From assembly GCA_013115125.1 (NCBI GenBank), contig JABANN010000365.1, positions 1-34,947 on the forward strand: DNA of 34,947 nucleotides. Reading direction: 5' to 3'. Source of the stretch: Perkinsus olseni (lineage: Eukaryota). Below the pieces are notes generated by a model. That model was not told the DNA's origin and did no database searches. It saw only the letters and a list, made by a program, of their open reading frames with translations. This document shows, piece after piece, positions 482 through 34,947 of the stretch. The position numbers and the translations under genes are program-made. How positions within the stretch are numbered: position 1 is the first letter of the stretch; each line of letters begins with the position of its first letter.

Positions 482-2536
482 ATGGCTACTGTCGCTCAGC
501 AGAACACCAACGCCCCCGTCGCCGAGGAGACCGCCGCCGCCACTGCCGCCGCTGCCCCTGCTTCAACTCAGCAGCAGCAACAGCAGCAGCCCGCCGCCCA
601 GTTCGCCTCCCTGTACGTCGGCGACTTGAAGCCTGAGGTCACCGAGGCTATGCTCTACGAGGTCTTCAACGGTGTCGGTCCGGTTGCCTCCATCCGTGTC
701 TGCAGGGACTCGGTCACTCGCCGTTCCCTCGGATACGCCTACGTCAACTTTCACAACGTCGCTGATGCCGAGCGTGCTTTGGACACCTTGAACTACTCCC
801 CTATCAGGGGCAAGCAGTGCCGTATCATGTGGTCTCATAGGGACCCCACTCTGAGGAAGTCTGGCAACGCTAACGTGTTCGTTAAGAACCTTGACAAGAC
901 CATTGACAACAAGGCCTTGTATGATACCTTCTCCCTCTTCGGCAACATCCTCTCTTGCAAGGTCGCGACTGATGATGATGGCAAATCTCGTGGCTATGGC
1001 TTCGTTCACTTCGAGAACGACGAGTCCGCTCAGAAGGCCATTTCCAAGCTTAACGGCATGATGGTGAGATTTCCCGTTCCCTAGGGTGTAGTTTAATTTT
1101 GTTTTATTTCTATCAGATTGGTGACAAGGCTGTCTACGTTGGCCCCTTCCAGAAGCACGCCGAGCGCGCTGAGCAGCACGGTGATGAGCCCAGGAAGTTC
1201 ACTAACGTCTACATCAAGCACTTGCCCGACAGCTGGACTACTGAGGAGGACGTCCAGAAGGCCTTCGAGCAGTTCGGCAAGGTGGGTCGTCGACAGGTGC
1301 TGGGATTGAACTCGGGTCGTATGGTTGTTTGTTCAGATCACTTCTGTTGCCATCCAGACTGACAGGAAGGGCCGCAGATTCGCCTTTGTGAACTTCGAGG
1401 AGTTCGACGAGGCTGCCAAGGCCGTTGAGGCTATGAACGGTAAGGACATGCGCACTCAGGAGGAGATCGACGACGACGCCGCCAAGGACCAGGAGGAGCC
1501 CGAGGAGTCCGGTGATGAGATGCCCGAGTACAAGCTGTATGTGAGCAGGGCCCAGACCAAGGCCGAGCGCTCTGCTGAGCTCCGCAACAAGTTCCAGGCT
1601 AAGAACACCGAGAAGGCTGGCAATCAATCTTGCAACCTCTACGTCAAGAACTTGCCTGAGGATGTCGATGATGAGAAGCTTCGTCAAATGTTCGAACAGT
1701 TTGGTGAGATCACTTCCCCCAAAGTGATGGTTGATGAGAACACCGGCGTCTCTCGTGGCTTCGGTTTCGTGTGCTTCGCTCACCAGGCCGACGCCGAGAA
1801 GGCCATCCAGGCTATGCACCTTAAGTTGTACGGTGGCAAGCCTCTGTTCGTTGCCGTCGCCGAGAAGCGTGATGCCAGAATCGAGAGGCTGCAGCAGCGT
1901 TATCGTGCTGGTATCCCTATGGGAGGCTTCCAGCAGCAGAACTACCAGGGCTACCGTGGTCCTAGGAACTTCAATGCTCCCAACCCGTCCCCTATGTATT
2001 ACAGTGGCGGACAGAACAGGCAGGGTGGCATGATGCAAGGCCCTCCCGGCGGCTTCGTCGGCGGCCCTCGTGGTCCTATGGGCGCTCAGCGTGGTCCTAT
2101 GATGGGCGGTGGTTACCCCGTTAACCGTGGTCCTCGTCCCACCGGCCCGAATATGATGCCTATGAACCAGCCCCCCCGCGGCAACTTCCCCCCTCAGCAG
2201 CGCTTCCCTGGTCAGCAGGGTGCTCCCTTCATGGGACAGCAGGGTGGCATGCCTCCTCGTATGATGCCTGAGCAGCACAACATGCCTGCTGCGGCCATGC
2301 ACCAGAACGCTCCCCCGATGACCGCCGCTGCTCTTGCTTCCGCTCCTCCGGGACTCCAGAAGCAGATGCTTGGTGAGCGTCTCTTTACTCTGATCTCTAA
2401 GTACCAGCCGACCCTTGCGGGCAAGATTACTGGTATGATGTTGGAAATGGATAACTCTGAGCTGTTGATGTTGATCGATTCCGACCAGCAGTTGAGAATG
2501 AAGATTGACGAGGCTGTCCGTGTGCTGCAGCACTAA
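482..2536 (+). CDS. PABP: Cytoplasmic polyadenylate-binding protein (4 RRMs, Pro/Gln/Met-rich linker, C-terminal MLLE/PABC domain); exons 482-1063, 1117-1281, 1337-2536 (~648 aa)
   Basis: RRM1 SLYVGDL...[14 protein letters not shown]2 NVFVKNLDK...[13 protein letters not shown]3 [11 protein letters not shown]4 NLYVKNL...[23 protein letters not shown]...[14 protein letters not shown] introns 1064-1116 and 1282-1336 join the three ORF pieces in frame. Confidence 0.97.
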
Positions 2537-2876
2537 GCGGGTTTTTTATTGGCGACTCGTCTTTCCTTGGTTGCTGGTGCGCTGATGGTGGTAGCCTGTA
2601 AAAAAATGAAAATATGTTTTTTTCTCTTCTCTATCTGAGAGTGGTAGTAACAGTATAACGATTGTCGTAGGAGAAGTTGATGATGCTAGTGGAAGTCAGC
2701 TGACGTTGATGGCAAGAGAGCTTTGATGACAGCACGGCGCAGTGCTATTGCTATTATTACAACTACTTCTACTACTACCACTGATTATGTTGGTTATGAT
2801 GAATCTACGTTTCCATTAGAACAGGCAAAAGCTATAGTTGACCATAATGCGCTGAGTGTTGTGTTCATGTTCGTTA

Positions 2877-33905: not shown

Positions 33906-34947
33906 AGACGAGAAATGGAGGTCGTGAGTTACTCCTCCTGAAAATAGGAAAGGAAAACTGTGCAAATGATCATAAATTCAATTTCGGCATACCACTTTTC
34001 CCCCAACTTCCAATGAAATTCACCACCACTCCCACTGTCCATGTGCCCTAGATTTTTTTCTGCCATTTCCGAAATTACTTGTCGAAATCCCACCCGATAA
34101 AAAATGCAGAAAACGTCACACAAAGACGATAAAACGAAAAAGTCCAGAAGCTGTTTTCCAATTCGACGCCCTGAGTGAACGAAAATCATCTGTCTCTTCC
34201 CTCTTGCCCTCTTCGATGCCGAGCAAATGTTGAGTTAAACCCGTAGGGTTCGACGAGGGTGAAACTAGTACAGGGGCTTAGCCCGGGCCCCCCGCACGGC
34301 GCGGATCTCAGCTGCGTTCCGACACAACGGTTTCGAGCTTAACGGAACTAACGGAGTAGCTTTCTCGAAGTATTTTGGAAGCCGGGTAGATTGGCCCATA
34401 CGGATTTGTTTTTATCTTCTATTTTCCTGAATTTCCATCATCTTTACAAGATCTCAATTTTTTCGCCGTACCACTCCTTCCCATAATCACACTCAGTAAC
34501 GCTCTAATATTGTCTAACCCTCGTCGATGGACCTCCCCTCAGTATTACTTTTCCCATTGTAGCCATCGGCACTGACTGATCGTCCTTCGGGAGTGGATGG
34601 AAGCATACAAAAGGTTAAGCTGGTACTGAGAAATGCACGCGGGTTCGATGCCGGGGTCCTCCTATTTAAAACTTCGGTAAAATCACCCTCGCAGTTTACG
34701 AGGTCGAAAGATACGCTCGGTGAATTCAACAAGTTCTATCGGGAAAGTGCCAAGAATTTTCCGGATCTTGACATAATAATTTCGTGGCGCAGTGACGGAC
34801 GACTGCACCTATTAGCCGAGAGGATACGTTCCGTTAGCGGAGGGAGTCAATGCTAAGGCGAGGCGTCATTGTTCGGTTGTCCATGAAAATGGTGAATCCT
34901 GAAAATGGTGAATCGGAAAAAATTACCCGCGAACCCTGATAATGGTG

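Follow-up and report, generated by a model that had tools for sequence, protein, structure and literature searches.

The origin of new spliceosomal introns is a long-standing question, and the known sources are mostly introners that resemble DNA transposons. Introners have been reported in Amoebophrya (PMC7789003), in dinoflagellates (10.1101/2020.10.14.339549) and across eukaryotes (PMC9860276). Transfer RNA (tRNA) genes also lie within introns, and in Caenorhabditis elegans 44% of 609 tRNA genes are intronic, as chance predicts from the intron share (PMC4999229); intact intronic tRNA genes are ordinary. In Perkinsus marinus, 349 tRNA-Leu-CTT and 116 tRNA-Gly-GGA genes have been reported (PMC3706591), and most of the introns surveyed are shorter than 100 bp (PMC3101222). 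Here we describe remnants of tRNA genes in a stretch of 34,947 nt from Perkinsus olseni (contig JABANN010000365.1), referred to throughout as the window. These remnants consist of the 3' part of a tRNA gene, and several lie at the edges of introns, where they overlap the splice signals. Judged by its sequence, the window is P. olseni DNA, Perkinsus being an alveolate related to dinoflagellates: the long exon of its PABP gene shares 93% identity with the P. marinus protein and 91% with the P. chesapeaki protein, and a public P. olseni hypothetical protein of 544 aa (P0244) matches letter for letter 13 minus-strand exons, which make up an ankyrin gene that we call gene B. All counts given here are confined to this one 35-kb contig.

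The original prediction for this DNA had described about 20 elements resembling the T arm of a tRNA, listed at 21 sites, as a series of short introns built from tRNA genes. The overall observation is real, and it was over-counted. The core GGTTCRANYCC gives nine exact matches in eight places, one palindrome being counted twice, versus 0.47 expected, and none of 100 shuffles reaches nine. With at most one mismatch there are 30 matches versus 8.86 expected (largest shuffle, 16), so that roughly one-third of the one-mismatch matches are due to chance. T arms with the G53-C61 pair and at least four of five stem pairs number eight versus 0.93 expected, with a maximum of four in 200 shuffles. Each of the 21 sites was scored for core mismatches, stem pairs, variable loop, acceptor strand, base 73 and trailer. 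The core is exact at eight sites (161, 5741, 14683, 15279, 18712, 19690, 20262 and 21163), carries one mismatch at ten, including the intact tRNA at 13287, and carries two at 14941, 22620 and 25488. Credible remnants number 12, at 5741, 14683, 15279, 18555, 18712, 19478, 19690, 20262, 21163, 31114, 32050 and, doubtfully, 161, a density of about one per 2.7 kb; the eight sites at 1300, 8341, 11565, 14941, 22620, 25488, 26637 and 34640 are at chance level. Thus the enrichment stands, and the count of about 20 does not, since some eight of the listed sites could equally be random matches.

The descent of these elements from tRNA genes is well supported, and on this point the original prediction is borne out by the motif enrichment, by the conserved letters C48 and A73, by a fixed spacing to a run of T residues and by one decayed full-length copy. 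The best-supported set comprises the intact tRNA and 11 firm remnants (n = 12, 161 being left out). C48 is present in all 12. A73 is present in eight of the 12, for which our own binomial at p = 0.25 gives about 0.003, and in two of the eight weak sites. In five remnants, exactly 8 nt, i.e. the acceptor strand and the discriminator, separate the T stem from a T run of four to six T or, in one, of TTT followed by TTTTT; a tRNA gene that ends in a terminator of RNA polymerase III (Pol III) has its T stem, 8 nt and T run arranged in just this order. A 22-mer that includes the donor GTGAGG and is common to two remnants of the first of two families (described below) lies inside tRNAs called by ARAGORN at 26 of 31 metagenome loci. 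As these tRNAs belong to six isotypes (Thr, Met, Ala, Ile, Val and Asn), the 22-mer is a natural tRNA segment from which the isotype is unreadable, and the resemblance to Pro, Val, Glu and Gly-like isotypes that had been proposed falls away. Of the remaining loci, four of the 31 represent one repeat common to four contigs, and none of the 31 is Perkinsus-like.

A covariance model (R1) was built from 32 tRNAs lacking the 22-mer and run unfiltered on the window, where only its top three matches individually have E below 1. These are the intact tRNA-Pro with 49.5 bits, the minus-strand pseudogene at 31113-31198 with 16.5 bits (E 0.013), a decayed full-length copy aligned over model positions 1-74, and the remnant at 21163 with 12.9 bits (E 0.13, positions 44-65). 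A weak candidate at 18521-18585, likewise aligned over the full length, has E 4.6. The remnant at 15279 aligns over positions 44-65 and that at 32050 over 45-65; the alignment of 19690 is likewise confined to one or the other of these spans, and that of 14683 to the T loop. The pseudogene at 31113-31198 is closest to the local tRNA-Pro (34 nt at 79% identity, from anticodon loop to T arm), and in it a GTAGGT (31145-31140) overlaps the variable loop.

Not recognised in the original prediction was that the remnants are the 3' part only: the variable loop, T arm, acceptor strand, discriminator and, in five cases, the T run. The A box (TRGYNNAGTGG) is not enriched in the window, with 17 matches versus 19.3 expected, and exact matches occur only at the intact tRNA and at one other place, 33031. 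No remnant scores as a functional tRNA gene, and by tRNA finders and covariance models alike the full cloverleaf is present at 13287-13358 alone. A proposed series from intact tRNA to bare relics is therefore thin: the intact gene, the decayed copy at 31113-31198 and the weak 18521-18585 fit it, and the remaining sites are 3' pieces directly. Relaxed ARAGORN calls (1, 5 and 67 at ps95, ps85 and ps75, respectively) were considered as pseudogenes and rejected as noise. Relaxed ARAGORN also calls a tRNA at 8810-8858, outside the 21 sites, where we observe a 49-nt palindrome, 86% self-complementary, with two inverted AGTTCGAGCC motifs.

The intact gene itself, a tRNA-Pro with anticodon CGG (13287-13358, minus strand), is called by ARAGORN and scores 49.5 bits with Rfam RF00005. 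It lies wholly inside a 148-nt GT-AG intron of a PRP18-like gene (13274-13421, minus strand), whose joint is seen in all four RNA runs and whose neighbouring exon encodes a PRP4/SFM-type domain. The tRNA is on the strand of its host gene, and its 3' end is 13 nt before the 3' end of the intron. Over these 13 nt (13274-13286) the tRNA is followed by TATCTGCTTTCAG and then the exon, with no run of at least four T before the host 3' splice site. The X8 contig spans about 13283-13358 and continues into other sequence on both sides, which implies that other copies of this tRNA-Pro exist.

For eleven of the 21 sites, the surrounding intron has the support of RNA contigs, an orthologue or a public gene model. 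The site at 32050 lies in a well-formed predicted intron outside these 11, and 31114 in a more tentatively predicted one; 19478, 19690, 14683, 5741 and 161 are in untranslated regions (UTRs), in spacers or outside modelled genes, and three weak sites are in unmodelled sequence. Across the five modelled genes, 7158 nt of intron contain nine core sites, four of them exact, versus one core site and no exact one in 7143 nt classed as exon, a class that is impure, as two PDE 'exons' are interrupted by stop codons in every frame and must hide further introns. The location had been given as mostly short introns. The sites are indeed concentrated in non-coding sequence and largely intronic; some hosts, however, measure 170, 289 and 579 nt, and several sites are in UTRs or spacers. 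The presence of sites in both orientations relative to the host gene holds, as do all four introns that had been fixed by homology (one in PABP, one in PRP18, two in PDE): the minus-strand GT-AG joints of 13274-13421, 25472-25519 and 26578-26667 are seen in RNA contigs of four runs, among the 15 of 51 joints listed, and the PABP intron at 1282-1336 is demonstrated by tblastn with the PABP proteins of P. marinus and P. chesapeaki (P0121 and P0122).

Two neighbouring genes account for many of the supported introns. Gene A was found through an unnamed 472-aa orthologue (P0241) in a profile-free search of 1.8 billion representatives. The orthologue aligns with the window one exon at a time, with identities of 77-100%, and gene A is a single minus-strand gene that extends from 19285 to about 14765 and has 11 introns, which by the orthologue-guided boundaries contain the sites at 18712, 18555 and 15279 and the weak site at 14941. 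In gene B, the introns of the P0244 model contain 21163 and 20262 and the weak 22620. For splicing in general, X7 RNA contigs that cross introns at low depth were counted neither for nor against; the output of a brute-force GT..AG search was so noisy that it provided leads only, and a codon-usage score with about 1200 training codons was too weak for gene modelling.

The overlap of remnants with splice signals can be seen directly in four introns, all on the minus strand. In the case of the 46-nt gene A intron at 15264-15309, nearly the whole intron is a sense remnant with an exact core. The junction GMIKE/ISEVYSH is continuous in P0241, and read-through meets a stop. The donor GTGAGG shares letters with the variable loop AGGCC (15306-15302), which is followed in order by the T arm (15301-15285), the acceptor strand GAAGGCT, A73 (15277), TTTTT (15276-15272) and CTCTTCAG. 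The 170-nt gene B intron at 21023-21192, placed by mapping P0244, starts in a similar way, with a sense remnant of exact core from intron position +4 (21189-21160) and TTTT at 21159-21156. In the 68-nt gene A intron at 18515-18582, which has orthologue-guided GT-AG ends, the remnant is antisense (plus strand 18554-18583, one core mismatch, four of five stem pairs), and its acceptor strand, CTTCTAC, becomes the donor GTAGAAG when read on the strand of the host. The fourth is the predicted 67-nt intron at 32032-32098, where GTAAGC...TAG joins open frames of 62 and 99 codons and a sense remnant (32073-32044, one core mismatch, four of five stem pairs) is followed by TTTTTT and GATTAG. Pfam matched no families in the open frames around 31114 and 32050.

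Two further introns on the minus strand hold antisense remnants with an exact core. That at 18706-18751 in gene A is 46 nt long (remnant on the plus strand at 18710-18739, four of five stem pairs) and has non-canonical GT..GG ends; this is the sole match to P0241 that keeps the frame, no GT-AG solution exists, and use of a nearby AG would bring in a stop codon. The allele may be defective, the assembly may contain an error, or the acceptor may be non-canonical. The other, at 20252-20830 in gene B by the P0244 mapping, is 579 nt long, its remnant (plus strand 20259-20288) is 7 nt away from the 3' splice site, and an X7 contig crosses it at background depth.

The self-BLAST and pairwise local alignments found no common body or tail beyond the T run, which excludes a single short interspersed element (SINE) family, as had been proposed. 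What had been missed was the kinship among subsets. The first family consists of 15279, 21163 and 5741, and the second of 18712, 19478 and 19690, with 25-50 nt in common. Between 15279 and 21163, the local alignment extends over 87 nt with a score of 35 versus a null maximum of 17, and about 52 nt are 83% identical. The two host genes were considered as paralogues and rejected, with a best BLASTP E-value of 54 and no wider paralogy in a tblastx self-comparison of the window. The third member lies in a minus-strand remnant at 5732-5766, with an exact core, acceptor strand GGACGGT, A73 and TTTTT. The region around it (5650-5900) aligns with 15200-15450 at a gapped score of 75.4 versus a null maximum of 62.3; it shares about 20 nt of gene A exon 10, the T arm and the T run, and the 28 nt between them are absent. 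From its sequence, 5741 looks like a fragment copy of the junction of gene A exon 10 and intron 10 rather than an independent tRNA remnant.

Besides the tRNA remnants, other short modules lie at the edges of the introns in this contig. When 37 supported introns were compared pairwise, leaving out one of 1667 nt, at least 16 of 1332 comparisons exceeded the maximum of 1500 shuffles, and the likenesses resolve into three module types: the T arm, AATTTCGTGGCGCG and ATCTTGCAATCTTGCAWTTCCTCAACGC, the last termed M3. The motif AATTTCGTGGCGCG(T/C)GA has 15 matches with at most two mismatches versus 0.29 expected, on both strands, at 16374-16387, 21848-21861, 22378-22391, 27486-27499, 30939-30952 and 33197-33210 and as nine near-matches. 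Its copies lie directly after a 5' splice site, directly before a 3' splice site, or fill a 43-nt intron; there is a palindromic pair at 27476-27499, and RNA contigs break at several copies. The motif may be a factor-binding site or the end of a repeat. M3 has five matches versus 0.08 expected (4296-4313, 15926-15943, 21029-21046, 23003-23020 and 25876-25893) and occurs also at 20082-20111 and 21693-21722. One copy fills a 47-nt intron, and another lies at the 3' end of the intron 21023-21192. Sense copies are at, or at most about 25 nt from, intron 3' ends, and antisense copies lie from position 7 to 13 at 5' ends, an inverted arrangement that, by analogy, resembles the ends of an introner of the miniature inverted-repeat transposable element (MITE) type. 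M3 was also considered as a relic of the spliced leader and rejected, as TCTTGGCTCA has five matches versus 3.0 expected.

The interpretation that we favour, at about even chances of being right, is that the remnants are the debris of the amplified tRNA genes of this lineage, kept at intron edges as carriers of splice signals. Given the very high tRNA gene numbers of P. marinus, debris from gene turnover is to be expected. Copies of tRNA genes would be constantly born and dying, and in a gene-dense contig the introns, UTRs and spacers would be the only DNA to tolerate dead copies. Within an intron, a GT together with the variable loop AGGYC could serve as the 5' splice site (GTGAGGYC or GTAGGTC), and the T run of the Pol III terminator as the pyrimidine tract before YAG; in one antisense copy, the acceptor strand would serve as the donor GTAGAAG. 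Deletions that shrink the intron would then be tolerated only where they left the splice signals in place, so that erosion would halt at the remnants, which, having no A box, would no longer be Pol III genes. What the sequence shows is the descent from tRNA, the positions of the remnants and their overlap with splice signals; we infer both this order of events and the passivity of the remnants. Of the two roles originally proposed, a source of new introns and a dense lattice of TFIIIC sites, the first accords with that overlap, which is no proof of it. Taken literally, the phrase 'introns built from tRNA genes' describes the sequence that a few very short introns have today; as history it is unproven.

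Several findings weigh against debris that decayed in place, and most of them fit a different account, in which a tRNA-derived, introner-like mobile element inserted 3' pieces with their own splice signals into genes and so created some of the introns. Decay in place should leave 5' halves too, yet the A box shows no excess; there is only one significant full-length pseudogene, an Rfam search of the window at E up to 10 gave no second tRNA, and the 5' part is absent even in the 170- and 579-nt introns and in the spacers, where nothing forces deletion. A mobile element could have carried remnants that were 3'-only from the start. The likeness of 15279 and 21163, which lie in unrelated genes, extends from the 5' splice site to slightly beyond the T run; likeness between the exons upstream of the two donors is at chance level, with 75 of 703 control pairs scoring as high, and a likeness bounded by the splice site is what a mobile intron would be predicted to leave. 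The 46-nt intron at 15264-15309 contains the remnant alone. Adjacency to splice sites holds in long introns too, as the remnant or tRNA in the 148-, 170- and 579-nt introns is 13, 3 and 7 nt from an end (combined p of about 0.02, by our own rough estimate). Two other module families stand at intron ends, and the layout of M3 is that of the terminal inverted repeats of known introners, which are reported from the related Amoebophrya (PMC7789003). Against a mobile element, there are only two to three copies per family, at 73-83% identity, and several copies lie outside introns. Inspection by eye found no target-site duplications or inverted ends around the T module, and the gene A exon beside the 46-nt intron is conserved in two homologues, so that no coding sequence was added. 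We therefore regard such an element as possible and, on balance, doubtful. The broader proposal that tRNA-derived introners, with the variable loop as donor and the terminator as pyrimidine tract, partly build Perkinsus introns alongside modules of the M3 type seems unlikely to us.

A functional role for the B box would be of another nature. In yeasts, ETC and COC sites are dispersed TFIIIC sites that consist of a B box without an A box, and the remnants could by their sequence be sites of this type, working independently of orientation on chromatin or at the boundaries of gene arrays. Eight exact B-box cores without an excess of A boxes are the sequence feature of an ETC-type site, and both the two orientations and the spread over introns, UTRs and spacers, at the density of credible sites given above, would suit it. 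For binding, a box of 11 bases suffices, yet C48, the acceptor strand, A73 and the T runs are kept as well, which points to youth rather than selection, and the letters of the core vary within the second family (GGTTCAACCCC, GGTTCAACTTC and GGTTCGATCCC). We consider retention as TFIIIC sites improbable. As to whether the elements are tRNA-derived at all, a GC-rich hairpin or cis-regulatory motif could happen to look like a T arm: the window shows equally strong enrichment of two unrelated motifs (15 vs 0.29 and 5 vs 0.08), an Rfam search of the 91 nt around 15279 gave no tRNA signal, and eight of the 21 sites are at chance level. The complete conservation of C48, the frequency of A73, the fixed spacing to the T run, the full-model alignment of 31113-31198 and the identity of the 22-mer as a tRNA segment all speak against this. 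As a general explanation it is thus highly improbable, being largely refuted for the 12 credible sites, and it stands for the eight weak ones.

The remaining remnants lie outside the supported introns. After the last orthologue-supported exon of gene A, a sense remnant with an exact core (14671-14712, minus strand) comprises the variable loop, T arm, acceptor strand CTTGGGC, T73 and TTTGCTTTTTAG, in either the last intron or the 3' UTR of that gene. Two antisense remnants with core matches lie on the plus strand at 19476-19505 and 19686-19715, within 19476-19715, in the stretch that separates the gene B stop codon (19740) from the gene A start codon (19285); X8, X10 and X12 RNA contigs pass through this stretch unspliced. 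The public model for gene B places 19690 in an intron and translates 19478. In that model, the last intron (19509-19846) is read straight through by RNA contigs of three runs, and the last exon (in the region 19381-19846) translates a tRNA remnant as LEVEPGVFV; the true stop of gene B is probably the one at 19740, after a poly-Q tract. Near the start of the window, the palindrome GGGTTCGAACCC (163-175), which precedes the PABP start codon by about 300 nt, has an exact core on both strands, lacks C48 and A73, aligns with R1 at positions 51-63 only, and is a doubtful remnant. The 55-nt PABP intron (1282-1336, plus strand) holds the motif AGTTCAATCCC, which, with one mismatch and two of five stem pairs, is at chance level.

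Two observations on the gene A region stand apart from the remnants. Among gene A introns of 43-310 nt there is one of 1667 nt (16537-18203, minus strand) with low RNA-contig cover. Its minus-strand open frames of 81-122 codons matched no Pfam family, and the intron may have arisen by insertion or contain a nested gene. At position 14505, the end of an RNA contig carries 10 letters, which we assign to the end of the Perkinsus spliced leader; adaptor-like sequence comes after them. With this assumed leader sequence, we read 14505 as the trans-splice acceptor of the PRP18-like mRNA, i.e. the 5' end of the mRNA that comes after gene A.

If tRNA pieces supply both a donor and a pyrimidine tract, genomes rich in tRNA genes carry ready-made seeds of introns, and if tRNA-derived introners exist, they would be a new source of spliceosomal introns. 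The more ordinary reading would show the debris of Pol III genes co-opted as splice signals, and the remnants also flag errors in public gene models, in one of which a tRNA remnant has been translated as part of a coding exon. Perkinsus is tractable for such questions, as it stands beside the dinoflagellates and has amplified tRNA genes, very short introns and public genomes for three species. In the literature searched, with supplements and subscription papers outside its range, there was no report of tRNA remnants that form or fill spliceosomal introns, nor of Perkinsus introners; the main texts of PMC7789003, 10.1101/2020.10.14.339549 and PMC9860276 contain no relevant mention of tRNA and no Perkinsus introners.

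Among described systems, the tRNA-derived SINEs, such as AfuSINE2 of Aspergillus fumigatus in the part of its description considered here (PMC5063351), are like the remnants in being dispersed, tRNA-related and equipped with a B box. SINEs have a head with A and B boxes, a common body, a tail and target-site duplications, whereas the remnants have no A box, common body or tail. The ETC and COC sites of yeasts share with the remnants a dispersed B box without an A box, and unlike such sites the remnants keep tRNA letters that these need not have. Introners, in the portions of the reports on which we draw, are similar in that related short sequences fill the introns of unrelated genes and carry or abut splice sites, and Perkinsus is a close relative of lineages with introners. 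They form many near-identical copies with inverted or direct repeats, whereas the window has two to three diverged copies and a T module without repeats; copies of the introner type in unrelated genes amount to a single pair (15264-15309 and 21023-21192), two copies in 35 kb. The amplified tRNA genes of P. marinus belong to the same genus, and their hundreds of copies are a ready source of dead ones (PMC3706591); the part of that report considered here deals with near-intact tRNA genes and the Dada transposons inserted in them, not with intronic remnants. No Dada element is evident beside the remnants of the window, where no search aimed at Dada was made. The nested tRNA genes of C. elegans, as described in the part of that survey used here (PMC4999229), have their counterpart in the intact sense tRNA-Pro, which lies wholly inside the spliced intron 13274-13421. 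Unlike those nested genes, the copies in the window are mostly 3' remnants of 30-40 nt that adjoin splice sites and have letters in common with the splice signals; some of them nearly fill introns of 46-68 nt.

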